Source of the DNA: a virus | Taxonomy: Duplodnaviria > Heunggongvirae > Uroviricota > Caudoviricetes | DNA: 37,062 bases | IMG/VR virus record: IMGVR_UViG_2718218435_000004 | Strand: one strand, 5' to 3' | Notes under the pieces: generated by a model | The model's input: only the letters and a program-made list of their open reading frames with translations | What the model was told of the DNA's origin: nothing | Database searches by the model: none | In this document: one piece after another, positions 3,097 through 30,405 of the stretch | How the letters are laid out: each line of letters begins with the position of its first letter | How positions within the stretch are numbered: the first letter of the stretch is position 1 | Program-made: the position numbers and the translations under genes

Positions 3097-5544
3097 TTAA
3101 CCGTCATGCATCATGCTGGCACGGGCGCGCACACGTTTATCCCGCTCGTATTTTTCGAGCGCATCCTGTAACTGGCGGTCGAGCTGTGTCCCCGGCGCAG
3201 TACCACCCGTCAGGCTGATGTGATATTCGTTTTTACTCTGGTCCACATAAGAGCGGCCAGCCGGTGCCGTGACCGGCTGATAAGCCTGATAGCCTGCATA
3301 AGAGCTGGTCGCCGGAATATAACCACCGGTGCCATACGTGGCGGCATGAGTTCTGGCGGCGGTCTGGTCAAGTGTGTCTGACTCTTTGTTGATAACACCG
3401 AGTTTTTCCAGTACCCAGTCAATACCGCTGCGCAGTTTGTTGAACGCATTAAGCGGCAGCATCAGCGCGTCAGCCAGTGCCTGCCCGAACATGACGCCCG
3501 TGTCACGGCAACGGTTCAGGGTGTCCTGGGTGGCTTTAACCGGAGCAATCAGGTTTGTAAACCACTGCCACGCGGCCTGTAACTTTTCGCCCAGCCAGTC
3601 AAACACCGGTTTCAGTGGCGTGAACAGTTCCCCCACCGGCGCAAAGGCCGCTTTCAGCCCTTCCACCACACCGCCAAAGAATGCGCTGACAGGCTCCCAG
3701 TATTTACGGATAAGCAACGCCCCGGCGACAATGGCAGCCACCACGGCCACAACCGGCCAGCTAATCGCCCCGATGGCCGTCATAACGGCACTACCAACCG
3801 TCGTGAAGATTGCCCCCATTGCGCCTGCTGCCGCGATGATGGCATTGATGCCGGTGATAACCGGCCAGGCTATGAGGCCAATGGCACCGATGACACCAGT
3901 CAGCGCCAGTGCACCACCGACAATGATGCCGATGGTTGACGCCAGTGATTTGTTTTTCTGTATCCAGCCGTCGAGTTTTAACACATACTTTGTGGCCGTC
4001 TGCGTGAGATTACGCAGTGCGCCTTCCTGTTGGTCAAACAGGTCAGTCCCCACCGCCTCATAAGCGGACTGAAACTCCTTAAAGTCACCGCCGAGGTTAT
4101 CCTGCATGATATTTACCAGCTCGGCGGTCTTCCCGTCTGAGGCTTTAAACGCAGCGGTCAGTTTGTCCAGCTTTCCGGTTGAGGCGGCAGTCATCAGCAC
4201 GGCGGCGGCTGAGCTGGCCTCCTCCCCGAAAATAGTTTTCATGTATTCAGCCTGCTGGGCAGTACCGAGCCGGTTTTTCTCAAAACTGGCCTGCATTTCT
4301 TTCAGAATGGTAAATATTGGCCGGGTGTTTCCCTTGCTGTCTGAGGTTTTCACTCCAAGCTCTTTGAGTGCATCCCATGCTTTTCCCGTCGGTGCCTGCA
4401 GGCGGCTTAACACGGCACGGCTTCCCGTCCCCGCCATTGAGCCTGTGATTTTTGCATCATGCAGCGCCCCGACCATTGCGGCGGTTTCTTCAATGCTGAC
4501 ACCGGCATTTTTTGCCACAGGTGCGGCATAGGTCAGCGCATCGCTCATGCCGTCAAAATCGGCGGCGGTTTTGTTCATCGTCATGGAGAGAACATCCCCG
4601 ATATGAGCGACCTTATCGTTTGAAAGCTGAAAGGCGGATTTCATCCCCATCAGCAGGGCGGCGTTTTCTTCCATCGTGCGGCGGTTCGCCAGCGCCATAT
4701 TCAGCGTGACCGGCGTTGCCGCCTGAATGGCATCAACATCCCCACCCGCTTTCGCGATGATTATCTGTGCACCGGCCGCATCATCCGCCGAGGCTGCGGT
4801 ATTGTCACCGAGCTGGCGCGCCTGTTTGCGTAGTGCGGTCATTTCGGCGGAGTCTTTTGCCACTCCGAGCACGGCCTGCAATTCTGAGTTTTTCTGCGCA
4901 AACTCATAACCGGGCATCAGCAGCTTAACTCCGGCCATCGTTCCCGCCGCCGCAATCCCCACACCGGCAGCGCCCACCGAGGCCATATTTCCGGCCAGTT
5001 CCTTTCCGGCCTGATAACGCTGTTTGACTGCGTTAAGTTTTGCCTGTTGCGCACTGACACGCGCCAGCGCATCACGCTGACGGTTAAGCTGTGCGGTGGT
5101 TTCACTGATACGGTTTTTCAGTCCCTGCTCATCATGTGCAAGATTGCGGGTATTAATTCCCACAGCGGCCAGTTCCCGCTGCTGGCGTTTAACGGAATCC
5201 GTCAGGCGGTTATATTTCGCCTGTAAGTCCTCCGCCGCACGCTTTGCGGATTCCAGCACTTTCGCCTGAGCACGGGTCGGACGTTCGGTGTTTTTAAACT
5301 GTGTGGCAAGGGCTTCGGCTTCCTGCCGTGCCTTTTCAAGTGCATGACCAGTCACGGCGAGCTGCGCACTGGTCTTGCGAAATCCCTCAATACGGGATGC
5401 GTGACCGTTCAGCTCGCGCAGTGATTTTTGTGTTTCCCGGATATCCCCCGACAGCGACTTGCTCGCTGTGCGGATGGATTTAAACGGGCGGGATGCCTGG
5501 TCAACAGCCCTGAGCAATACCTGTAATTTTACATTGTTACTCAT
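3097..5544 (-). CDS. T: Tail tape measure protein T
   Basis: 815 aa (P2 gpT is 815 aa); coiled-coil-rich N-terminal half and Gly/Ala-rich hydrophobic central region typical of tape measure proteins. Confidence 0.9.
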   Translation of the reverse strand: MSNNVKLQVLLRAVDQASRPFKSIRTASKSLSGDIRETQKSLRELNGHASRIEGFRKTSAQLAVTGHALEKARQEAEALATQFKNTERPTRAQAKVLESAKRAAEDLQAKYNRLTDSVKRQQRELAAVGINTRNLAHDEQGLKNRISETTAQLNRQRDALARVSAQQAKLNAVKQRYQAGKELAGNMASVGAAGVGIAAAGTMAGVKLLMPGYEFAQKNSELQAVLGVAKDSAEMTALRKQARQLGDNTAASADDAAGAQIIIAKAGGDVDAIQAATPVTLNMALANRRTMEENAALLMGMKSAFQLSNDKVAHIGDVLSMTMNKTAADFDGMSDALTYAAPVAKNAGVSIEETAAMVGALHDAKITGSMAGTGSRAVLSRLQAPTGKAWDALKELGVKTSDSKGNTRPIFTILKEMQASFEKNRLGTAQQAEYMKTIFGEEASSAAAVLMTAASTGKLDKLTAAFKASDGKTAELVNIMQDNLGGDFKEFQSAYEAVGTDLFDQQEGALRNLTQTATKYVLKLDGWIQKNKSLASTIGIIVGGALALTGVIGAIGLIAWPVITGINAIIAAAGAMGAIFTTVGSAVMTAIGAISWPVVAVVAAIVAGALLIRKYWEPVSAFFGGVVEGLKAAFAPVGELFTPLKPVFDWLGEKLQAAWQWFTNLIAPVKATQDTLNRCRDTGVMFGQALADALMLPLNAFNKLRSGIDWVLEKLGVINKESDTLDQTAARTHAATYGTGGYIPATSSYAGYQAYQPVTAPAGRSYVDQSKNEYHISLTGGTAPGTQLDRQLQDALEKYERDKRVRARASMMHDG

Positions 5545-5964
5545 TCGTGTTTCCGCTTCGCCGGAGCGCCTTTTCGCGCCATGTGATGAGTTCGGTCAGG
5601 CTCATGGGATACAGTTCTGATGGCGGCCAGTGAAATATCACTGCCACATCCGCCATCAGGTCATCGACCGAGAGATTTTTCGGAAACGTCACTGCACCGA
5701 GTTCGGCGACAAAAAACCGACCACCTTACCGGCCAGCGCCACAAGGTCAGGCAGTTCCAGCGCGGCGACTTCCTGCTCGGTCAGCATCGGTGCCGTCATG
5801 CGCGGCAGCACTTTAATCAGTGCATCGACTTCGGAGTTCGCGACTGCAGCCAGACTGACACCGCGCAGCGTCCCGGCATTGGGTTTCATCAGCGTGACCT
5901 GTTCGATAACCTGCTCACCACGTTTGACCGGATTGTCCAGGGTAATGACGTTTTCTTTGTTCAT
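5537..5964 (-). CDS. E+E': Tail assembly chaperone E+E', made by programmed -1 ribosomal frameshift
   Basis: The - strand mRNA reads GTC GGT TTT TTG TCG near 5710-5718, giving the slippery heptamer T-TTT-TTG a few codons before the E stop. The hand-translated -1 frame continues VAELGAVTFPKNLSVDDLMADVAVIFHWPPSELYPMSLTELITWREKALRRSGNTNE to a stop at about 5537-5539, for 85 + 57 = 142 aa, the known size of P2 E+E'. It ends just past the T start codon. Confidence 0.75.
5689..5964 (-). CDS. E: Tail assembly chaperone E
   Basis: 91 aa (MNKENVITLDNPVKRGEQVIEQVTLMKPNAGTLRGV...), matches P2 gpE and sits between FII and T. Confidence 0.9.
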   Translation of the reverse strand: MNKENVITLDNPVKRGEQVIEQVTLMKPNAGTLRGVSLAAVANSEVDALIKVLPRMTAPMLTEQEVAALELPDLVALAGKVVGFLSPNSVQ

Positions 5965-6020
5965 GGTTTTCTCACTTCTGAATCGGGGTTAACCGGTCAG
6001 CCAGGCTGACCGGATGAAAA

Positions 6021-6539
6021 TCACAGGCCGATATTGCGGCGGTGTTGCTCCAGCCGGTCGACGCCGTTCACCTTCTCAATCATGTTGATGGTGTCGATTT
6101 CGACCAGCTCCTTACCGTCCATCGTCAGCCGGAAATAGGTGCAGACCACGGAGATTTTCGACTCGGTGTCTTCTCCCTGTTTGCCCTCGCCGGTGTCGAT
6201 TTCTTTCTGACGGCCACGCATGACCACCTCGACGGCCACCGTTTCGCCGGTATCGTCGCGCTGGTAAGAGCCGGCAAAACGAATCGGTACGGCATCCACA
6301 CCGGTTGCGGCGTAAAGCTCCCAGATAACCGAATCCGGGAAGCCACCGAGCGACCACTCCATTGACAGCGCATCGTCATCAAGGCCGAGGTCTACCGGTG
6401 CGCTGCCGTTCATCCCCGCACCGCGATAGTTTTCGAGCTTACGGGTCAGTTTTGGCAGCGTGACGGACTTCGCGACGCCCTGATAGCTGTAGCCGTTCAG
6501 AAAGACGTTCATTAACTTGAGTTTGCGCGGCATTGCCAT
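6021..6539 (-). CDS. FII: Tail tube protein FII
   Basis: 172 aa, matches P2 gpFII (MAMPRKLKLMNVFLNGYSYQGVAKSVTLPKL...). Confidence 0.9.
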   Translation of the reverse strand: MAMPRKLKLMNVFLNGYSYQGVAKSVTLPKLTRKLENYRGAGMNGSAPVDLGLDDDALSMEWSLGGFPDSVIWELYAATGVDAVPIRFAGSYQRDDTGETVAVEVVMRGRQKEIDTGEGKQGEDTESKISVVCTYFRLTMDGKELVEIDTINMIEKVNGVDRLEQHRRNIGL

Positions 6540-6551
6540 CGGTCAGGCTCC

Positions 6552-7742
6552 TTAATTGCTGTTAACCGAGGTGACCAGATTTGCCAGGTATTTATCGGTA
6601 ATACGCTGGCGCAGGGTCAGGTTTTCAAGAGGAGGCACCGGGGTATAGTCGTAGTCGATATACAGTTTTCCGGCCTTGAGGGTTTCCGCATCGTTGGATT
6701 CTTCGCTGAACCAGCAGGTCGCATCCACGATATAGCCGTTTGTTTTCAGCTCACGGAATTTGGCATTGATGCCGTCAACGATGTCGCGAATCAGCGTTGC
6801 GGTGATGGGCTTGTCCACCGCCCACATGTGCGCCTCAGCCATCGTGTCGGCCAGCACCTGCGCGGTGCGGGTGTAGTTTTCAAAGAGGAACAGCGGGTCA
6901 TCAGAGCAGGTACGGTTACCCCAGAATCGGAAACCGTCGCGGCGAATCAGCGTAGTGACGCCTGACTCGTTAAGCAGGTCAGCATCGGTGCCGGACTCCT
7001 GCAAATCCCAGAATACAGATGCGCTGATGCCGGTAACACCGTTCACCCCGACATTGGACAGCGTTTTATGCCAGCCCTGCTCCTGGTCGATTCTGGCACG
7101 CAGACCCAGCGCACGGGCGGTGGCATACGCGGTGGCGGTGGTGCTGGTGACCGTATCCCATGCGAGGAAATCCGGCCAGATGACCATCAGCTCACGCTGG
7201 CTGAAATTCTGGCGGTAGGCTTTCACCTCGGAAATGGTTTTACAGCCCCATGCGCTGATATACCCGAAAGCGCGCAGCTTCTGACAGACTGATGCCAGTG
7301 CAACAGCCACCTCTTTGGTATCCAGCCCCGGCACGCCGAGAATACGCGGTTTAACACCGGTTACCGACTCCGCCGCCAGCAGGGCTTTCAGTCCGGTGTA
7401 CTGACCGTTTTCGTCGGTGGTGCCGATGATATTGGAAACGGTCTGCGCAAGTTTCGTTTCCTCGTCGTCGCCGGTGCCGTCTTCCACACGCACGACAACG
7501 GTGACCGGTTTTGACTGGTCGGCGATGGCCTGCAACGATGCCGCCAGCGTGCCTTTTTTACCGGCCTTTGCAATTGCGCTCTGCACATTGGTAATCAGCA
7601 CTGGTTTATTGAGGGGGAAGATTTCCGCATCCGCATCGCTGGCCGTGCAGACCATGCCAACAATGGCGGTGGATACGGTGGAAATGACGCGGGTGCCGTC
7701 GTTAATCTCCAGCACCTGCACGCCGTGATGATAGTCACTCAT
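6552..7742 (-). CDS. FI: Contractile tail sheath protein FI
   Basis: 396 aa, matches P2 gpFI (MSDYHHGVQVLEINDGTRVISTVSTAIVGMV...). Confidence 0.9.
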   Translation of the reverse strand: MSDYHHGVQVLEINDGTRVISTVSTAIVGMVCTASDADAEIFPLNKPVLITNVQSAIAKAGKKGTLAASLQAIADQSKPVTVVVRVEDGTGDDEETKLAQTVSNIIGTTDENGQYTGLKALLAAESVTGVKPRILGVPGLDTKEVAVALASVCQKLRAFGYISAWGCKTISEVKAYRQNFSQRELMVIWPDFLAWDTVTSTTATAYATARALGLRARIDQEQGWHKTLSNVGVNGVTGISASVFWDLQESGTDADLLNESGVTTLIRRDGFRFWGNRTCSDDPLFLFENYTRTAQVLADTMAEAHMWAVDKPITATLIRDIVDGINAKFRELKTNGYIVDATCWFSEESNDAETLKAGKLYIDYDYTPVPPLENLTLRQRITDKYLANLVTSVNSN

Positions 7743-8061
7743 CCGTTTAACTCCGTGGTTAATGGGTGCAACTATTTTCTGTTGGGCAGTGCATGAGACG
7801 CTATTTGACCTGGCTGGTCAGTGGATGAAACAACAGATAAAGAAAAGGCAGGCAATTCGCCCGCCTGTCCTGATTTGTACTCACTCATTTTCCGACTGAC
7901 AATTTACATAGCCAAAACGCTATCAAATCTGACAGTCTGCTTTGAGCGAGGAGCAGAGGTTAGTTTTAGTTAACCAAAATGATAAAAAGCAGTAGAAAAA
8001 TCCGCTCATTACGTTATGGTTATAAGCCGCACATAATCATCCGAGCCAAATCCTCTTGATT

Positions 8062-8961
8062 TCAAAGAATTAGCACTTGCTCTTCACTAGAAACTATGGT
8101 TCTGACTTCACGCTCAAATACTGGATCCATTATCATTTTTCTATTTGTTGGAATAGTAAATTTACCGAGTACCATGACAATGCTACTCAACGGAAATAAT
8201 TTTGGAGTAACATTTCCTAATTGAATCGTAGGATATATATTAAAGCCCCCTTTTATCCTCATTGGCGAACCTTCAATGAAGTGTCGATAATTAAATTTCG
8301 CCATAGGGATTCTCGCCACATGCACTTTCATAATTACAGCAACCTGAGCTATTTTTACTTTCTGGAGGTAAGTTGACAATCGTTCTAACTGCGTTGTTTC
8401 ATAGAAAAAATCAGACCACGTTACAGTACTTGTTCCAGTAACAATTTTTATGCTGTTTCTCTTGTTGGGGTGAGCTTTTCCATATTCATAGATCTCCCGT
8501 AAGCTATCCATGTTCTTCACATAAGGGGCTTTCCGACCTCTCTTGACATAAACGCGGTCTGTAGTATCAGAAGGTGGATTTGCCTGCATAGCTGCAGCTT
8601 TTCTGCTTAATTTAGAGATATCATCTTCATCGAGTATATGTATACGGAATATATTATTACCTGTGGCAAGCGCACGGCTGATATCATGACTGGAATCACT
8701 TGCATAAATTGTATTCAATCCTGAAGTTCCATACTGGCATAATTTGTCATGCGTGAAATTTTTTTCCAGTCTAAAGAAGGCGGGGATATGCAAGGTTTTA
8801 TTAAAACTCCGACGAATATGGCTTTTGACATACACCAAATGAGCAGAGCAATTTGGGTCAGGACATTTGAGTGGATAGGGATTAACACTATAATTAAAAG
8901 TATTTACATTTACTAAAATCTGATTGTTATCAATAGCCTGAGTTATACGAATACCACTCAT
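8062..8961 (-). CDS. Hypothetical 299-aa protein in the Z/fun cargo slot between FI and G; no family recognised
   Basis: ORF with an ATG start preceded by a strong GGAGGAG Shine-Dalgarno; markedly AT-rich relative to the flanking tail genes; occupies the position of the non-essential Z/fun gene of P2. Contains a Cys/His-rich segment (LKCPDPNCSAHLVYVKSH) but no motif I can assign. Confidence 0.7.
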   Translation of the reverse strand: MSGIRITQAIDNNQILVNVNTFNYSVNPYPLKCPDPNCSAHLVYVKSHIRRSFNKTLHIPAFFRLEKNFTHDKLCQYGTSGLNTIYASDSSHDISRALATGNNIFRIHILDEDDISKLSRKAAAMQANPPSDTTDRVYVKRGRKAPYVKNMDSLREIYEYGKAHPNKRNSIKIVTGTSTVTWSDFFYETTQLERLSTYLQKVKIAQVAVIMKVHVARIPMAKFNYRHFIEGSPMRIKGGFNIYPTIQLGNVTPKLFPLSSIVMVLGKFTIPTNRKMIMDPVFEREVRTIVSSEEQVLIL

Positions 8962-9100
8962 TACTCCTCCATAAAGATAGGCGCAAGCATTTAGTAATAA
9001 ACCATTAACATGCCGAGATCATACCCGATCATTGAAATGTAAACACTCCCCTAAGACGGCTGCTGGCATAATATTTTATGACATCAGCAATGCCCACCTC

Positions 9101-9142
9101 TGGCACAGAGTGGACTGTCAGATTAGGCTTTACTCTGTGCCA
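9101..9142. repeat. Inverted repeat between G and the Z/fun-slot gene (11-bp arms, about 20-nt spacer)
   Basis: tggcacagagt ... actctgtgcca read directly from the sequence; no adjacent U-tract. Confidence 0.4.
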
Positions 9143-9176
9143 TAGATATGTAAGCCCACACTAGAGCTCATACAAC

Positions 9177-9704
9177 TTATTGCGGCATTTCCGGCCATTC
9201 AGGATTTGCAGGATCCACACGACTGACCAGAACACTATAGCGTTCCCATGCCTCCAGTCGACTACGCTCCTCATCTGTTGCCATATTCAGCCTGACCGCG
9301 CGCTCCAGCGGCAAAATCACGGATTCAGCTTCGGAAAGCAGAGCTGCCTTATGTAATTCCGCCAGTTTCTGCTGTTCGTCTGCCGTATAAATCCGCTTAA
9401 TCACGGCACCATCCTTAAACATCCATTTACCTGAGTCGTCAGCACGTCGGTTGGAGGTAATATCAGGAACCTCAACAACGCTAAAACCTTCAGGATTAAG
9501 CGTTGAAGCATCTCTGGTGATAGCGACAATAATATTATTTTCATCGTAAACAATCTTTATTGTGTCTGGCTGAAAGTTCTTCACTTCCTCATACCAGTTT
9601 TTTCCGTCCTCAGAGTAAAGCCAGATAACTCCGTGTTTCTTTGTTAACTCATACTGTTCCAGTGTTTTAGCGTTACCCGCTTTTATGTTCTTTAAGTGCA
9701 TCAT
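9177..9704 (-). CDS. G: Tail fibre assembly chaperone G
   Basis: 175 aa (P2 gpG is 175 aa), immediately downstream of tail fibre gene H. Confidence 0.85.
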
Positions 9705-9705
9705 A

Positions 9706-11727
9706 TTAAACGCTCGCTACATTATACCAGGTGCCATTTATATACTTTTGAACGGGTCTGTAATAAACGCCCGCTATATTATCGGCAGAGTTGGACCCTG
9801 TATCCTGAACATTAATACCAGACAATACATGACCTGACGGGCACTGGAAATTCCATGTTTGCCAGTTGTTCACTCCATAATATTGCTGTGACCCAAGTCG
9901 AACATCTTTCACATATCTGGAATCAAAATTGCCATAGTTGCCAGGAATAACTTGCGAGCCACAAAGCCAGTTACCGTTATTATCCATGTACGCCTGACCA
10001 TCGGTGCCATTGGCTGTCCTTGAGTTATTAATCATGTAGATGCCAAATTGCTTGTTCCCCAGTCCACCTATCATGAACTTGCGGTCAGCGTGATTCTGGC
10101 GAAGCAACGCCTGAGCGCTATCAGTGTTAACTATATTTTTCCCAAAGATAGCGTTGTTATCGCGCATCTGAATCCACATACCATTACTGCTGTTAATAGC
10201 AAAACGGTCTGAAAGCGTCTCCCCTGAAACATTAAGGCCACGCCCCATCGAAACAGCGCCAGTAGCGTTATTAATCCATAATGGCCTTAATCCGTTATAA
10301 GTCCCCATGTTGTCACCGGAGTTTGTCAACATGAAGTATGTATTTGAACCATCATTACGAATAAAGAATCCGTAATTACCATAAGCAATACGTAGGCCGT
10401 TTGCTGATTTTGATATGACTTCGCCATTTACAATGGCATTGACAAGAACATACAAAGCATCCCATTTAAGATTCATCAGGTCTTTTGTTGTAGTACTCTG
10501 GCGGCTTCTCCATTTGAAATATTCATTGCCGTTATCCCCCGTTTCAAACCACATGAATGAATCAGTGTCACCATCGGCATCATTTTTAAATCCAATCTTC
10601 GCCCAGTCAGTATTTCGAATCCAGGCAAGGATTGAGTCGTTTTCAAAAGTAAGTCCACCGGACAAGGTATCGCCATTTTTTTGCACGGCGTTCCCGGCTC
10701 GGTTTACCGTTTCCTGTAAACCGAGATATTCGATAACGGCGGCAACGGTCGATTTAGCCAGAATATCCCGCCCGACTTTTGTCAGGGTTGCCAAGCTGGC
10801 AACATCATTCCCAATAAAATACGGAAACCTGTCTGCCGCAGTAGCAAGCCCCGCCAGTGCCGTCAGGGTGGCATCTTTCGGTTGCTTACCCGCAAGCGCA
10901 TTAGTCATGGTGGTAGCAAAATTCGGGTCATTGCCCAGCGCCGCCGCCAGCTCGTTCAGCGTATTCAGTGCGTCAGGCGACGAGTCTACAAGGGCGGCAA
11001 TCGCGGCCATAACGAAAGCCGTGTTTGCGATCTGAGTATTATTCGTTCCCTGTCGCGCAGTTGGCGTCGTTGGCGTTCCGGTCAGTGCAGGGCTGTTTAA
11101 TGGCGCTTTCTTGTTCGTTTCATCCATTACCGTCTTAACGGCTTTCGGCGTTGCAGCCAGTGTTTCAGACGTGCTGTTGGTCGCACTGCTTAACTGAGTA
11201 AAACCTTTTGCGGTCAGCGAGGCGTCAGGGTGACGTCGTGACTGTTCATGTTCTGCAATTTTGTCATCAACGTAATCCTGCGTCGCCATCACCGTTGTGG
11301 TGTCGATGGTCAGATCCACTGAGGCCACACTGCTGACGATAATGACCATGCGGCAGGTCTGCGAACGTCCTGAGCCTTCGGCAAGGGCTGGCTTATAACT
11401 TTCGGCCATGTTCGCCACGGCAATTAACGTTCCCGCATCATCGTACAGGCCAAGCTCACGCATCCAGAAACCGCCCACCTCCGGCGGAATAACCAGCTCT
11501 GCGATAATATAATTACTGTTTCGTTTGTCCTGGCTGATTTTGTTCAGCGCATGTCGCCAGACTTCGTGGATAAGCCCGGTCTGTCCGGCATCCGGGACAG
11601 GCAATTTACCACCGCCATCCCCGACGGCCATCGTGGTAATGTTGACCTTCCGCCCTCCCGGCGCGGTTGCCGCTGCCAGCTTTGCTGCACCGGCAGTGGT
11701 GATAACGGTTTTGAATTTTGTGCTCAT
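9706..11727 (-). CDS. H: Tail fibre protein H
   Basis: 673 aa; N-terminus [40 protein letters not shown]... matches P2 gpH; the C-terminal part is Asn/Gly-rich and likely the variable receptor-binding region. Confidence 0.9.
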
Positions 11728-14236: not shown

Positions 14237-15022
14237 ATGTTCAGTGATAATGTGACTAATGCGTGGTGGTTTATCTCTTTGTATCTATTTTTATTAATAG
14301 CATTAACATTTGTTACCTTTGGTAAAAGTAATCTTATGAGGTTTATTGCACATCATTTCAATCTTGAGTATTCAGACAGAAAGTTAAAAATGCTCGACAA
14401 AAAATGGCGCGACATTCAACTATTTAAAATAATTAACGGAATCAATGTATCAGGCATCGAAGATGTGAGAATGATACAGCAGGGGCTGATTGATGGAAAA
14501 CTAAAAACATCGTATTTTTTCCTTACTCGCTTCTGGGGTGACATAACAAAACCACCACACATAATTAAAACAACAATTGTAATTCTGGCCAGTATTATTT
14601 ATATTCTCTTCGCATGTTATATACACAATGAACAATCCGCTATAGTAAGGGATGCCATAGGTATACCATATAAAAATATGATGTACTATGTTTATAGTGA
14701 CAAAGTTCTTTTATCCTTCAAAAATAAAACGGTTGAATTTAATAAAACTTATAGCCTTGCCGATTGCAAGAGTCTGCAAAACGTATTTATAAAAGACACA
14801 CTTCCCGAGATCGCCTGCAATAAGCTCTTACAGCTAAACAAGGAGGACTCCGAATGGTTAAGTCAGGAGATTAAAGATAATAACAGCTACAGAAAAACAT
14901 TATTAATAATATCCCTAACCTATTTCATTTCAGGTCTGCTTATATTCCTGTCATATACAAAATTCCTTTACGCCAATAAGAAGGTTGTAGAATACAAAGC
15001 ATCAAATAAAAATCACTCATAA
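14237..15022 (+). CDS. Hypothetical 261-aa membrane protein (about three predicted TM helices) in the orf30 cargo slot between V and S
   Basis: ATG with a GAGGAG Shine-Dalgarno; very AT-rich; transcribed opposite to the late tail genes; hydrophobic stretches near residues 10-28, 103-123 and 218-240. Confidence 0.7.
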   Translation: MFSDNVTNAWWFISLYLFLLIALTFVTFGKSNLMRFIAHHFNLEYSDRKLKMLDKKWRDIQLFKIINGINVSGIEDVRMIQQGLIDGKLKTSYFFLTRFWGDITKPPHIIKTTIVILASIIYILFACYIHNEQSAIVRDAIGIPYKNMMYYVYSDKVLLSFKNKTVEFNKTYSLADCKSLQNVFIKDTLPEIACNKLLQLNKEDSEWLSQEIKDNNSYRKTLLIISLTYFISGLLIFLSYTKFLYANKKVVEYKASNKNHS

Positions 15023-17948: not shown

Positions 17949-19490
17949 ATGCCAACAGTTCCAATTTCTATGAGAAAACTTAAAGAAATTCTTAGGCTTA
18001 AATACGGTGTTGGACTCAGCCATCGACAAATTGGTCGTAGTCTTGCAATCTCCCCTTCCGTTGTATCCAGATATGCTAATCGGGCGGCTCAACTTGGCAT
18101 AAAGCAGTGGCCCTTACCTACAGGATGGGATGATACAAAACTAAAACATGCGTTCCTTCAGACCCAGGTTAAGATGAAGAAGCACTCTCTGCCTGACTGG
18201 GCTACAGTACACCGGGAACTGCGTAATAAATGCGTGACGCTGCAGCTACTCTGGGAAGAATACTGTGAGCGTAATCCAGGCGGTTTTTACAGCTATAACC
18301 ATTACTGCCGGATGTACCGTGAATGGCTCAAAACCACTTCACCATCAATGCGTCAGGTACATAAAGCTGGCGAAAAACTTTTCGTTGATTACTGTGGACC
18401 TACCGTTGGCGTTACCGACCCTGAGACCGGAGAAATAAGAACTGCTCAGGTCATCGTAGCTGTTCTCGGGGCATCAAGTTACACATGGGCAGAGGCCACC
18501 TGGTCTCAGCAGCTTGAAGACTGGGTGATGAGTCATGTTCGCTGCTTCCAGTGGTTGGGTGGCGTTCCTGAACTTGTTGTTCCGGACAATCTGAAAAGCG
18601 CCACATCCAGGGCATGTAAGTATGATCCTGACGTTAACCCTACCTACCAGCAGATGCTTGAGCATTATAATGTCGCAGTTTTGCCTGCGCGGCCACGTAA
18701 ACCGAAAGATAAAGCCAAAGCTGAAGTTGGCGTTCAGGTTGTTGAACGCTGGATCATGGCCCGAATCAGGCATGAGATCTTCTACAGCCTTGCATCGCTT
18801 AATCAGCGCATTCGGGAGTTGCTGGAAAGACTGAATAACAAAATAATGCAGAAGTTGGGTTATTCACGTGCAGAACTCTTCATCCAGCTTGATAAACCCG
18901 CACTGAAGCCTCTTCCTGAAGCCAGTTACAGTTACACCCTGGTGAAGAAAGTCAGAGTTCATGCCGATTACCACGTGGAAATCGACAAACATTACTACTC
19001 GGTTCCATGTTCGCTGTTAGGCCAGCAACTGGAAGCATGGATCTCCGGAGAACTGGTAAGACTCTTCAATCAGGGGCAGGAGGTTGCTGTGCACCCGCGC
19101 AAGCGTACTTATGGCTACAGTACCCGCAACGAGCACATGCCTGAAGCTCATCGACAGCATGCCACCTGGACGCCAGAGCGTCTTCTGGAATGGGCGGGGC
19201 ACATAGGCAGTGAAACTCATAGTTATGTGCTTCATATACTGAACTCTCGTCCACATCCGGAACAAAGCTATCGCTTCTGCCTTGGACTCCTGAACCTTCA
19301 TAAAAAATACAGTAAAGCCAGACTTAATGCAGCATGTGCAAGAGCTCTGAAAACAAAGGTATGGCGTCTGTCAGGTATTAAATCGATCCTGGAAAAAGGT
19401 CTGGATAAACAACCTGTTCAGGATCCAAAACCAGATCTGTTATCCACGATGGAACACGAAAACGTACGCGGCAGTGAGTATTACCACTGA
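17949..19490 (+). CDS. istA: IS21-family transposase IstA
   Basis: 513 aa; N-terminal HTH region followed by a DDE transposase core; immediately followed by istB. Confidence 0.9.
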   Translation: MPTVPISMRKLKEILRLKYGVGLSHRQIGRSLAISPSVVSRYANRAAQLGIKQWPLPTGWDDTKLKHAFLQTQVKMKKHSLPDWATVHRELRNKCVTLQLLWEEYCERNPGGFYSYNHYCRMYREWLKTTSPSMRQVHKAGEKLFVDYCGPTVGVTDPETGEIRTAQVIVAVLGASSYTWAEATWSQQLEDWVMSHVRCFQWLGGVPELVVPDNLKSATSRACKYDPDVNPTYQQMLEHYNVAVLPARPRKPKDKAKAEVGVQVVERWIMARIRHEIFYSLASLNQRIRELLERLNNKIMQKLGYSRAELFIQLDKPALKPLPEASYSYTLVKKVRVHADYHVEIDKHYYSVPCSLLGQQLEAWISGELVRLFNQGQEVAVHPRKRTYGYSTRNEHMPEAHRQHATWTPERLLEWAGHIGSETHSYVLHILNSRPHPEQSYRFCLGLLNLHKKYSKARLNAACARALKTKVWRLSGIKSILEKGLDKQPVQDPKPDLLSTMEHENVRGSEYYH

Positions 19491-19501
19491 TACGGGATCC
19501 A

Positions 19502-20251
19502 ATGATGAATCATCTTTACGAACAACTGACCGCACTTAAACTCACCGGCTTCCGTGATGCGCTTAAAAAGCAACTTGCTCAGCCGGGCACATACCAGGAG
19601 CTGGGCTTCGAAGAACGCCTGTCATTACTGACAGCAGAAGAACTAACCTGCCGTGAAAACAGGAAGGCAGAGCGTCTGATCAAACATGCACGGTTCAGAC
19701 TTAATGCTGAGTTATCAAAGCTGGATTATCGTAACAATAGAGGGCTGGACAGGGCCCTCATCCGTTCACTCAGTCAGGGAAACTGGTTAACCCTGAAACA
19801 AAATATTTTACTGACCGGGGCCACCGGCAGCGGTAAAACGTTCCTGGCATGTGCACTTGGTCATAATGCCTGCCGACAGGGATACAAGGTCTACTATTAT
19901 CGCCTTAAAGCGCTGATGGAACAGTGCTATCAGGGGCATGCTGATGGAAGATACAGCAAACTTTTGACCAGGCTGAATAATAGCGATCTGCTGCTTCTGG
20001 ATGACTGGGGGCTGGAACCTCTCTCATCAGAACAGCGTAGCGACCTGCTGGAAATAGTGGATCTGATGTACCAACGAGGCTCAATCATCGTAGTGAGCCA
20101 GTTGCCGGTGGAAAACTGGTACAAAATGATCGGAGACTCCACACATGCGGATGCCATCCTAGATCGACTGGTTCATGGCAGTATCAAGATCGAACTTAAA
20201 GGAGAATCAATGCGGAAAATACAATCTCCGTTGACCGAAGGAGATCAGTGA
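19502..20251 (+). CDS. istB: IS21-family helper ATPase IstB
   Basis: 249 aa with Walker A GATGSGKT and Walker B LLLLDDWG, typical of IstB AAA+ proteins. Confidence 0.9.
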   Translation: MMNHLYEQLTALKLTGFRDALKKQLAQPGTYQELGFEERLSLLTAEELTCRENRKAERLIKHARFRLNAELSKLDYRNNRGLDRALIRSLSQGNWLTLKQNILLTGATGSGKTFLACALGHNACRQGYKVYYYRLKALMEQCYQGHADGRYSKLLTRLNNSDLLLLDDWGLEPLSSEQRSDLLEIVDLMYQRGSIIVVSQLPVENWYKMIGDSTHADAILDRLVHGSIKIELKGESMRKIQSPLTEGDQ

Positions 20252-27247: not shown

Positions 27248-28252
27248 ATGGATCAGAGAATCCTTGAACATGAAGCGATTAAACAACTTAGCAAAAAATC
27301 AGTGCGCAAGTTGTTTGGGGTTCACGATATCCCTAGAGCCAGTTCACCATTTCGCTATCCAGGAGGTAAAGACAAACTTGCCTCATTTCTCGCTATTTTT
27401 CTTGTACATAATAAGTTAAATGGTGGCCGGTTTATTGAACCATTTTGTGGTGGTGCTGGAGCATCACTTTCTTTACTATTGGGCGGATATGTAAAAGAGA
27501 TCCACTTAAATGATAAGAACTATGCTTTATTTTGCTTTTGGGATCAATTAATTAACAACACTGATAATTTATTGGATATGGTATATCAGAATATACCATG
27601 CATTGACGATTGGCATAAACAAAAGAAAATCTACCAAACGAGTATTATTGACCCCAATAAATACACCAAACTCGAATATGGTTTTAGTGTATTCTATTTA
27701 AACAGAACAAACAGATCTGGAGTACTAAGCGCTGGGCCAATTGGCGGTTTAGACCAGTCTGGAAAATATAAAATTGATTGCAGATACACTGTAAGTACGC
27801 TTATTAAAAAGCTCGAAAAAATAGCTAGCATGCGTGACTCTATATTCGTTTATAACGAGCACTGCATTGATTTTTTAAAACGTTTCAATAGTAAAGATAA
27901 CTATGATCATGATTTCGTTTATCTAGATCCTCCTTATGTTAAAGAGGGGCGCAACATTTATTCAAAAAACTTTTGCTTCGATGACACTCAGCATCGCGAG
28001 CTTAAGGATTACATAGCTGGTTATGCAAATCGTTGGTTAATTTCTTATGACGATCACCCTCTAGTGCATGAATTATACTCAAAACATGGCACAAGAGCCG
28101 TTGAGATAAGTTACGCCATGAATAAAGCAAAAGTTGGAAAAGAATTAATGATAGCGGATTCTCGCTTAAGAATGCCAGAATCATTATTCTCTGTTGATAT
28201 ATTAAAATCTGGCGAAATACCAATGAAGAAAAAAGTAGTTAAAATGGCCTGA
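27248..28252 (+). CDS. Dam-like (D12-class) N6-adenine DNA methyltransferase
   Basis: 334 aa with FRYPGGK near the N-terminus, the SAM-binding motif EPFCGGAGAS and the catalytic DPPY motif; AT-rich; lies where P2 has old/tin. Confidence 0.85.
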   Translation: MDQRILEHEAIKQLSKKSVRKLFGVHDIPRASSPFRYPGGKDKLASFLAIFLVHNKLNGGRFIEPFCGGAGASLSLLLGGYVKEIHLNDKNYALFCFWDQLINNTDNLLDMVYQNIPCIDDWHKQKKIYQTSIIDPNKYTKLEYGFSVFYLNRTNRSGVLSAGPIGGLDQSGKYKIDCRYTVSTLIKKLEKIASMRDSIFVYNEHCIDFLKRFNSKDNYDHDFVYLDPPYVKEGRNIYSKNFCFDDTQHRELKDYIAGYANRWLISYDDHPLVHELYSKHGTRAVEISYAMNKAKVGKELMIADSRLRMPESLFSVDILKSGEIPMKKKVVKMA

Positions 28253-28254
28253 TA

Positions 28255-29274
28255 TCAGGCCGCTTCTGCTTGTAATGTTTCAGTTGTAGAAATCACATAT
28301 TGTGAAATATCATTTATTTCATCTTTCCGTTCTATTAGTAGCCCTGGATCTGATACCAACAGTTCTAACCCTTTCTTAAAGCAAGTAGGTAACCGGAGTC
28401 TATGCAATACTGCGCCAAACTCCTCTGCGACTAGTGAAATATGGTCTTTCTTTATAGATTCATCATCACTCTCAAAATCAAAAGGTATAACAATAGCATC
28501 AGTTATTCTATATATTCTTTGCGCTAACCAGTGATTTTGTATGTTTGCAATATCCTCTTTTATTGCTTTTGAACGCCAATCTTGGCCGCTAGCAACTTGA
28601 GCAAAATAAATTTGCTTGCTTCCCGGATATGTATCGCGGGGATTATTATCTTTCCATGCAATCACATCAATACCAGCATCTTTATGAGGTCGTGTTTGCA
28701 AATAACGATTAACATCCTCAAATGGTCTAACCCTTCCTTCACCAATTAAATCAACAGCTCTAGTAAGAGCATCATAAAACTTTGAACTATCAGGTCTTGG
28801 CCAGCCGAATGAAATACTATGCCCCTGAACATAGCCAGCTAATGCAATTGTTGCAGCAATCTGTAATAAGTCTCGGTGTTTTCCTGTCGGCAAATCTACC
28901 CCATTAAATAGCCGTGATGCCGACATATGAGAAAAATACAAACAATATAAGTATATATGCTGATCTACGGTAAGTAATTCCAATGTTTCCTTTGCCAATT
29001 CCAAACATTGCGTTTCTTCATTAAAAATAAAAGGATAGCTATCCCCGAGTATATCCTTTCTTTGTTGATATTGTTCTAATAGTCTTTGTATTTCATTTTC
29101 GACTTCAGCATCTTCTTCGCCTATATCGGAAGATGTAAATGAATCTAAGTTCTCTAGAATATTCCTTAGTTCTGAAATTCGCATTGTAAAATATACATTT
29201 GATAAGCAAGATAACTCAAGCCAATCCAATTTGACTTGAATATGATGACTCTCTGGATAAGGTTGCAACTGCAT
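28255..29274 (-). CDS. Hypothetical 339-aa protein, second gene of a two-gene operon; possible nuclease-like partner (tentative)
   Basis: ATG 3 nt after the stop of the upstream ParB-like gene with a GAGGAA Shine-Dalgarno; AT-rich; convergent with the MTase, stops 2 nt apart. Segment HKDAGIDVIAWKD...IYFAQVASGQ loosely resembles Mrr-type PD-(D/E)xK motifs, but this is not established. Confidence 0.7.
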   Translation of the reverse strand: MQLQPYPESHHIQVKLDWLELSCLSNVYFTMRISELRNILENLDSFTSSDIGEEDAEVENEIQRLLEQYQQRKDILGDSYPFIFNEETQCLELAKETLELLTVDQHIYLYCLYFSHMSASRLFNGVDLPTGKHRDLLQIAATIALAGYVQGHSISFGWPRPDSSKFYDALTRAVDLIGEGRVRPFEDVNRYLQTRPHKDAGIDVIAWKDNNPRDTYPGSKQIYFAQVASGQDWRSKAIKEDIANIQNHWLAQRIYRITDAIVIPFDFESDDESIKKDHISLVAEEFGAVLHRLRLPTCFKKGLELLVSDPGLLIERKDEINDISQYVISTTETLQAEAA

Positions 29275-29277
29275 CTC

Positions 29278-30405
29278 TTATTCCTCAATGCTCTGCAATT
29301 GATATTGAACCTTAGATACCTTTCTCTTAAACTGTTCGATGTAGTTCTTCGTCGTATCGTCTAACGAATCTGTTCTATCTAAAACAGAAGATATAGTATC
29401 AAGTTGTTTGTTTATTTCCAAAAAAGCATCTTTAATGTGTTGAAGAGGGTCACCCGCTTGCTTATATAATTCAGAAAGACTTTCAACTCCAGACTTAAAA
29501 GCTTCATATGAAGCCTCATTCGCTAAAACCTCACCAAAATATTTCAAATCAGGATTTTGCGAAGAGATCAACGATGCTCTTTTATCTTTTTTATACCCAT
29601 AAAGACCGATCAGAACATCTCTGAGTTTATCAAGATTCCTTTGCGGTACAGGATTCTTTCTGAGTGTAATATTCCAATCTTTCTCCAATCCTAAAAAATC
29701 TTTATATTCAGTTCTATTCAAAGCCGTATACAAATGAGAAAAAGAAAATTTTGGTGACATTCTGTCGACATGAATATCATATATTTCTTGAGTTTTAGCC
29801 TGTTCAAGAACAAACATAGCACTAACTATAGAACGAACAGTATTGTTACTGTCACCAAGTTTTTTTGTTATATGTTCAATAGTGAGACCGTTATCTCTTT
29901 CACTTATAAACCATTTATATGCGAACTGTGCTTTAGCAAACGAATCCCATTTATGGGGACCATTAACATGTTTAAATCCAATAAATGAACGAGCTTCTGA
30001 CTCATCATTAACAAGATAAACAGCAACTTCCTTGAGGCTATCCAAAACCCAAGAATCTATATTTTTTGGAACGACAACTCGACATTTTTGTGCCAAGCCC
30101 GGTTCAGTAAGCAATTTGATGGCAGCTAAACGACGATTACCTTCTAAGACGACATACTTATCATCTTTTTTCATGACAATTAAAGGTTCAATCGACATAT
30201 ATCCATTTTCAGAAATGGATTTAATCAATTCTTCTAAATCTGCAGTATCAGATAATGCTTTAACCAACTCATATGAGTCAGCATTATCATTAAAGCTTTT
30301 CCCGTTATAAAGCCTTGGATTTCTAGCATCCAAGATTAACTCATCCGGGGAAATCATCTGTGTTTTGAGCGGTTCTAAGACAGTTTTTGGCATTTTATGC
30401 ACCAT
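29278..30405 (-). CDS. ParB/Srx N-terminal-domain protein (ParB-like nuclease/NTPase fold), first gene of the two-gene operon
   Basis: 375 aa; NPR box near the N-terminus (LILDARNPRLY) and SIEPLIVMKKDDKYVVLEGNRRLAAIKLL resembling the ParB GxRR arginine motif; AT-rich. The true start may be the first ATG or the ATG four codons downstream. Confidence 0.7.
   Translation of the reverse strand: MVHKMPKTVLEPLKTQMISPDELILDARNPRLYNGKSFNDNADSYELVKALSDTADLEELIKSISENGYMSIEPLIVMKKDDKYVVLEGNRRLAAIKLLTEPGLAQKCRVVVPKNIDSWVLDSLKEVAVYLVNDESEARSFIGFKHVNGPHKWDSFAKAQFAYKWFISERDNGLTIEHITKKLGDSNNTVRSIVSAMFVLEQAKTQEIYDIHVDRMSPKFSFSHLYTALNRTEYKDFLGLEKDWNITLRKNPVPQRNLDKLRDVLIGLYGYKKDKRASLISSQNPDLKYFGEVLANEASYEAFKSGVESLSELYKQAGDPLQHIKDAFLEINKQLDTISSVLDRTDSLDDTTKNYIEQFKRKVSKVQYQLQSIEE

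Follow-up and report, generated by a model that had tools for sequence, protein, structure and literature searches.

The small protein Tin of phage P2 is linked to the single-stranded DNA (ssDNA)-binding protein of phage T4, and another P2 protein, Fun(Z), blocks phage T5. In the P2 annotation, fun(Z) is bordered on one side by the terminator of the V operon, downstream of G, and on the other by the activator site and promoter (pF) upstream of FI. This Z/fun locus has been described as the second defence-enriched hotspot of P2, with three validated PD systems in addition to fun (PMC9519451). It is also named as a hotspot in PMC13586616 and in bioRxiv 10.1101/2024.10.15.618418, the latter reporting it as mixed-purpose. 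While the slot is a proven source of one-gene defence systems, the cargo studied here, orf44, is 'hypothetical' everywhere. We analysed orf44 in a stretch of 37,062 nucleotides (Caudoviricetes; IMG/VR record IMGVR_UViG_2718218435_000004; the whole stretch is called the window), which holds nearly a whole P2-like prophage on its minus strand. Orf44 probably encodes an anti-phage factor, binder and enzyme variants taken together. The chances appear evenly balanced that it is a stand-alone anti-phage protein acting non-enzymatically, by binding nucleic acid or a phage protein.

The orf44 cassette in the Z/fun slot

The coding sequence occupies 8062..8961 on the minus strand (ATG start, stop codon at 8062-8064), encodes 299 amino acids and equals orf44/gp44 of phage Wphi (WP_000014361.1). 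A GGAGGAG Shine-Dalgarno motif, read from the sequence at 8964-8970, precedes the ATG by 2 nt. FI (tail sheath, 6552-7742) and G (tail-fibre assembly, 9177-9704) lie on the same minus strand; they were named, like orf44, through the annotation of Wphi, to which the DNA is 97.8% identical. GC content was 0.37 over 8001-9000 versus 0.54-0.59 in the tail genes at 5501-7500, and 33-41% GC was found in every orf44 orthologue examined. An earlier, sequence-only reading of this DNA had described a single AT-rich gene with a strong Shine-Dalgarno sequence between FI and G, and these observations agree with it. Full-length orthologues at 65-88% identity, together with pairwise dN/dS (the ratio of nonsynonymous to synonymous substitution rates) of 0.08-0.23 among five orthologues, argue that orf44 is not a chance open reading frame (ORF). 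It is a real gene, under purifying selection throughout.

The 1.4-kb FI-G interval was 99.7-99.9% identical in Wphi, Yersinia phage HQ103 and two records named 'Peduovirus P2'. Neither the Wphi annotation (GenBank AY135739), which gives no function, nor the RefSeq E. coli entry WP_000014361.1, labelled 'hypothetical protein', describes what the product does. PHROG 7195 matched the protein from end to end (E 1e-217); this PHROG has no assigned function and names the close phage-borne subfamily only. In a set of 5426 complete E. coli genomes, 1032 matched the slot flanks and 114 held the whole cassette; orf44 occurs in about 2% of the set and in about 11% of its members with the slot.

Comparison by blastn with P2, P22H1, P22H4, L-413C and P2-EC67 placed the homology breakpoints at about 7950-7961 and 9089-9104. 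The DNA between them (7962..9088, ~1.13 kb) is specific to the cassette and absent from other P2-like phages sharing both flanks. With conserved G and pF-FI flanks and an insert-specific interior, orf44 belongs to the cargo of the P2 Z/fun slot. The other phages carry products unrelated to orf44 at this site: 181 aa in P22H1, 251 aa in P22H4, 259 aa in L-413C and 303 aa (Mrr-like) in P2-EC67. The FI-G interval had been called a variable P2 slot, and in these five phages the flanks are indeed shared while the inserts are unrelated. Its content had also been taken for horizontally acquired cargo; the sharp breakpoints, the deviant GC content and the presence of 65-73% identical orthologues in different mobile islands bear this out. 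The orf44 cassette is horizontally mobile. Kinship with P2-EC67 ORF1 was considered separately and rejected, as the family profile shows no relationship.

The orf44 family, its genomic contexts and predicted fold

A word-indexed search of 5.8 billion proteins returned only 12 clusters, 65-99% identical and all from Enterobacterales. An exhaustive hidden Markov model (HMM) search of 1.84 billion representatives found 152 proteins at E<=1e-3, mostly 300-330 aa long, and a second indexed search added Halomonadaceae, Limnobacter and Paraburkholderia as named sources. Two scans of species-representative genomes for relatives found none. The earlier reading had recognised no motif in the protein, and database searches agreed: the orf44 protein had no match in Pfam, NCBIfam or PADLOC at E<=1. 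When 138 family members were searched, Pfam and NCBIfam gave nothing consistent, PADLOC 2.0.0 gave scattered weak matches only (the best to ThsB, in 3 members, E 3e-4) and the 138-sequence profile had no match among PDB sequences at E<=10. An SBP zinc-finger look-alike from the PDB sequence search with the close alignment (E 0.8) was not accepted, noise lying at E ~1. Longer members showed no informative domain fusions, one member with NeuB and SAF being probably a chimeric ORF, and hhalign detected no internal duplication between the orf44 domains. Orf44 was not found in the DefensePredictor supplements, and literature lookup by accession (WP_000014361, AAN28239), PHROG identifier and N-terminal peptide found no paper. 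Both gene and hotspot were known before; what appears to be unreported is how the family is defined, how the protein folds and that homologues are associated with defence islands.

We surveyed the gene neighbourhoods of about 14 contexts by hand. Copies at least 99% identical were all found in the G-FI slot of P2-like phages, even where the fibre gene H differs. The orthologues from Morganella, Serratia, Leclercia and Proteus (65-73% identity) lie in different mobile islands: between icd and an integrase, beside retron I-B (reverse transcriptase, RT, 3e-91; ATPase-Toprim, 2e-225), in Morganella; in Serratia, behind type I HsdR and JukA (8e-52) on an island bounded by an integrase; with AlpA and FRG in Leclercia; and among bacteriocin genes in Proteus. 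Among the homologues at 20-40% identity, the gene of an IMG/VR prophage stands between the RT-TIR gene of retron XII (5e-187) and a DUF4238 gene, followed by a lambda-type integrase; in Billgrantia its neighbours are AbiTii (1e-47) and SIR2-STAND; in Limnobacter, PglZ, a GmrSD fragment, Lit (8e-17), AbiEii and a serine recombinase; on metagenomic contigs, TIR, Schlafen-AlbA_2, SymE and Fic. In Paraburkholderia the gene lies inside a Tn7-like element. Co-location with named defence systems was thus seen in at least seven independent contexts. No neighbour recurred across the 14 contexts, and orf44 therefore appears to be a single-gene unit.

Three of these neighbourhoods deserve separate description. 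The Morganella morganii island (L022/L023, 5001-10900) is a small, integrase-bounded icd island that holds the orf44 orthologue and a complete retron type I-B. In Serratia fonticola (L021, 2740-4663), JukA and the gene after it lie between type I HsdR and the orf44 orthologue; this second gene encodes 370 aa, had no PADLOC match and could be a diverged JukB or some other partner. On two unrelated contigs (L007, 4368-6866; L012, 9073-11643), the same set of genes comes after the family member, namely a small ORF, DUF2924, a serine recombinase and a 145-aa ORF, and this common module suggests that the family member is carried at the end of a serine-recombinase integrative element.

The sequence-only reading had pointed to a Cys/His-rich segment near the N-terminus, and this segment holds up as a conserved feature of the family. 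Among the 138 aligned members, the putative zinc ligands C33 and C38 were each conserved in 97%, and H71 and C75 in 100%. Further conserved residues are R50, R64 and R106 (with two FRL motifs), Y138, Y147, W182, F185 and Q295; the N-terminus itself is also conserved, as MGIKM, or as MSGI in the orf44 subfamily. No Asp, Glu or Lys was conserved across the aligned members, and Ser90, a conserved polar residue, is Ala in 20% of them. Residues 31-110 and 135-203 are the best conserved, while the linker and the C-terminal domain tolerate most change. The protein (~34 kDa) is basic, with an isoelectric point (pI) of 9.76 and all three parts basic, and no hydrophobic stretch in it reaches the length of a membrane helix.

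An AlphaFold model built on the 138-sequence alignment reached a mean predicted local distance difference test score (pLDDT) of 93.2 and a predicted template modelling score (pTM) of 0.87; with a shallow 13-sequence alignment pLDDT was 46.9 and only residues 153-272 were folded. In the deep model, codons 1-110 (8632..8961, minus strand) form an all-beta module with the putative zinc site C33/C38/H71/C75 (pLDDT 84-96). Codons 111-203 (8353..8631, minus strand) comprise a variable helical linker (111-134) and a conserved alpha/beta part with Y138, Y147, W182 and F185; in overall layout, residues 112-203 are a long helix plus an alpha/beta region. Codons 204-299 (8065..8352, minus strand) form a beta-barrel, the most variable folded part, in which Q295 is conserved. 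The pattern of ligands suggests that the N-terminal module binds zinc at a Cys2-His-Cys site, and zinc fully liganded in this way is typically structural.

Foldseek searches of the PDB matched the C-terminal barrel to the anticodon-binding domain of aspartyl-tRNA synthetase (AspRS; E 4e-4, probability 1.0) and to other oligonucleotide/oligosaccharide-binding (OB) folds, namely Ten1/Stn1, RPA, the single-stranded DNA-binding protein SSB, CcmE, MCM10-ID (probability 0.98, 116 columns, E 0.046) and MCM N-terminal domains. For the AspRS N-domain, Ten1, RPA, SSB and CcmE the probabilities were 0.96-1.00, with modest E-values (>= 4e-4); the MCM N-terminal domain matches had probabilities of 0.3-0.97 and a root-mean-square deviation of 12-17 A over whole-length alignments. 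BFVD added viral SSBs and tRNA_anti-like OB proteins. We assigned the OB fold to the C-terminal part because the shallow model, folded only at 153-272, gave the same matches; the protein is thus predicted to have a C-terminal OB fold. T4 gp32, a 301-aa protein with an OB fold and a Cys3His zinc site, was not among the 50 Foldseek matches listed, and we make no claim about it.

Proposed defence function and its alternatives

We infer both the defence function of orf44 and its non-enzymatic mode. Binding appears the most likely mode, since what the family conserves is zinc ligands, arginines and aromatics, not a catalytic set. Orf44 is a self-contained, mobile 'moron' that a Wphi-like P2 prophage carries as cargo in its Z/fun hotspot, where the V-G late operon ends on one side and the FI operon starts from pF on the other. 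The encoded protein is soluble and basic, with an N-terminal beta module predicted to hold a structural Cys2-His-Cys zinc site, an alpha/beta middle rich in invariant Arg, Tyr, Trp and Phe, and a faster-evolving OB fold. Expressed from the prophage, it could serve superinfection exclusion or abortive infection by binding the nucleic acid of an invader (ssDNA or RNA), a replication intermediate or a phage protein, with the OB fold as a specificity module. Nucleic-acid binding would fit the pI of 9.76, which is only suggestive, and the data point weakly to a mechanism by binding of nucleic acid or of a replication component. A bolder form of this proposal is a new class of non-enzymatic immune proteins, in which a zinc-finger/OB-fold protein would recognise single-stranded phage nucleic acid, a replication intermediate or a phage SSB and arrest replication by sequestration, the OB fold setting specificity. 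We regard this as speculative and somewhat unlikely. If true, it would describe a compact, portable defence module, a one-gene cassette spread across integrative islands, Tn7-like elements and prophages of both the P2-like and the lambdoid kind.

A single-gene defence or exclusion function had already been suggested by the sequence-only reading. That suggestion gains strongly, by association, from the named defence systems that adjoin homologues and from the slot being a P2 defence hotspot (PMC9519451); it finds no support in similarity to a validated defence protein, PADLOC 2.0.0 giving 0 matches for the query and nothing consistent in the 138 members. Clear homology to a characterised non-defence protein was looked for as well, and none was found. 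Other observations weigh against a defence role or a binding mode. Several homologue contexts have no defence genes (Kushneria and Vreelandella, both Halomonadaceae), and the Proteus copy lies amid bacteriocin genes. Anti-defence genes and other morons also occupy such hotspots. The OB matches cover about one third of the protein (TM score ~0.23 normalised to the query) with modest E-values, and none of the Foldseek matches listed accounts for the N-terminal and middle regions; an unrecognised enzymatic domain in these parts is possible. How a purely binding protein would kill or block a phage is not obvious. Finally, PADLOC 2.0.0 dates from 2023, and newer catalogues may already list the orf44 family.

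If residues 1-200 were a novel catalytic domain (e.g. a nuclease or a nucleotide-modifying enzyme) with the OB fold targeting phage nucleic acid, orf44 would be a defence enzyme. Most single-gene defence proteins carry effector activity, the conserved segments 31-110 and 135-203 against a variable OB fold follow the usual pattern of conserved effector and variable sensor, and the Foldseek matches account for the OB part only. However, outside the four zinc ligands there is no conserved Asp/Glu/His/Lys constellation, the conserved polar residues being Arg, Gln295 and the replaceable Ser90; the zinc would typically be structural, and the sequence searches of Pfam, NCBIfam and the PDB described above matched no known domain. 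We consider an enzyme unlikely. The same architecture, a basic zinc finger plus OB fold with no effector domain, would also suit a non-immune DNA- or RNA-binding protein of lysogenic conversion or regulation that changes the physiology or gene expression of the host, or neutral hitch-hiking cargo. The mixed purposes of the slot and the two Halomonadaceae contexts fit such a role, and for Fun(Z), which shares the slot, the P2 annotation also gives a phenotype outside immunity, sensitivity to fluorodeoxyuridine (FUdR). Purifying selection at the dN/dS values given above argues against neutrality, though, and at least seven independent defence-adjacent contexts are not expected of a host regulator, so that this explanation too seems improbable.

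Retron adjacency would also suit a modulator of ssDNA-based systems, and the OB fold is SSB-like; orf44 could on this account be a counter-defence or phage-fitness factor, for example an SSB-like or decoy binder that shields the phage or lysogen from retrons or OLD-type nucleases. Anti-defence genes also cluster in phage accessory hotspots. Many homologues, however, lie in chromosomal or integrative islands with no phage structural genes, amid different defence systems, a pattern usual for defence genes but not for anti-defence genes; we judge a counter-defence role quite unlikely. Least probable, and by our estimate very improbable, is that orf44 belongs to a two-component module, either toxin-antitoxin or sensor-effector, and that the non-coding DNA of the cassette supplies the partner as a small ORF or an RNA. 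Non-coding DNA specific to the cassette leaves room for one on either side of orf44, ~100 bp at 7962-8061 and 127 bp at 8962-9088. But the hand survey found no recurrent partner, Rfam gave no match over 7000-10000, and the small plus-strand ORFs at 7762-7973 lie in the flank common to all P2-like phages, outside the cassette.

Through the analysis orf44 has acquired a delimited family, a confidently predicted fold and residues that are clear targets for mutation. Should orf44 prove defensive, it would add a compact module with no evident catalytic domain, bear on how binding-only proteins stop phages and close a gap in what defence-finding tools annotate. Should it not, it would serve as a useful warning example against guilt by association in hotspots.

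Flanking signals, other cargo and known systems

The cassette sits just inside a 25-nt inverted repeat, whose FI-side arm (7926..7950) is 80% complementary to the G-side arm (9100..9124). The repeat is part of what P2-like phages conserve around the slot, and its counterparts in AJ512685 are annotated there as 'inverted repeat'; the G-side arm overlaps a local hairpin (9098-9111/9132-9145) downstream of G. A sigma-70-like promoter candidate, TGGGCA-17-TATTAT (9068..9096, minus strand), lies upstream of orf44 and matches 9 of 12 consensus positions. A terminator-like GC hairpin with a T-run (7846..7866, minus strand) lies downstream of orf44, within the conserved flank; it stands just upstream of where the pF activator site of the P2 annotation was mapped by blastn. 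Both signals are consensus matches only.

Three AT-rich genes occupy the old/tin hotspot at 27248-30405 of the window. A D12 adenine methyltransferase (27248-28252, plus strand) matched PD-Lambda-5_B (E 7e-94), a 339-aa protein (28255-29274, minus strand) had no match, and a 375-aa protein (29278-30405, minus strand) matched only the N-terminal ~165 residues of the PD-Lambda-5_A models (E 5e-22). From these matches the locus looks like a three-gene variant of PD-lambda-5. A 261-aa ORF at 14237-15022 (plus strand, opposite to the late genes; 33% GC), in the S-V ('orf30') position, is another unassigned cargo gene. It had no Pfam or PADLOC match; it is 85-99% conserved in most of 21 P2-like phage records and 60-80% in 3, and is always called 'hypothetical protein'. 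An IS21-family insertion element, ISEc12 (17949-20251; istA 17949-19490, istB 19502-20251), lies between the holin/tail-X genes and the head-completion gene, and the prophage may be defective because of this insertion.

Among known systems, the OB-fold binders (class II aminoacyl-tRNA synthetase anticodon domains, SSB/RPA and Stn1-Ten1) resemble the C-terminal ~100 residues of orf44 with Foldseek probability of about 1.0. The likeness is at fold level only (10-17% identity, E >= 4e-4), and orf44 has no helicase, synthetase or other catalytic partner domain. MCM10-ID and the MCM N-terminal domain also pair an OB fold with a zinc motif, as the basic orf44 protein is predicted to do; the orf44 zinc ligands, however, lie in a separate N-terminal module and not within or after the OB fold. 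P2 Fun(Z) shares with orf44 the exact G-FI slot and its conserved flanks, and is likewise a non-essential, AT-rich single gene. It differs in length (528 aa vs 299 aa) and in strand, being opposite to the late genes whereas orf44 is on their strand, and in sequence, where an hhalign probability of 0.2% shows no relationship; orf44 does not belong to the Fun(Z) family. For P2 Tin this probability was 0.1%, and the PD and DUF4238 defence proteins differ in that orf44 has no HMM match in PADLOC 2.0.0. What orf44 has in common with PD-T4, PD-T7 and PD-lambda (Vassallo 2022), the DUF4238 protein (Rousset 2022) and P2 Tin is the form of a one-gene P2-hotspot cassette swapped between mobile elements; a DUF4238 gene directly adjoins one orf44 homologue, and Tin, like orf44, is a small protein with no recognised enzymatic domain.
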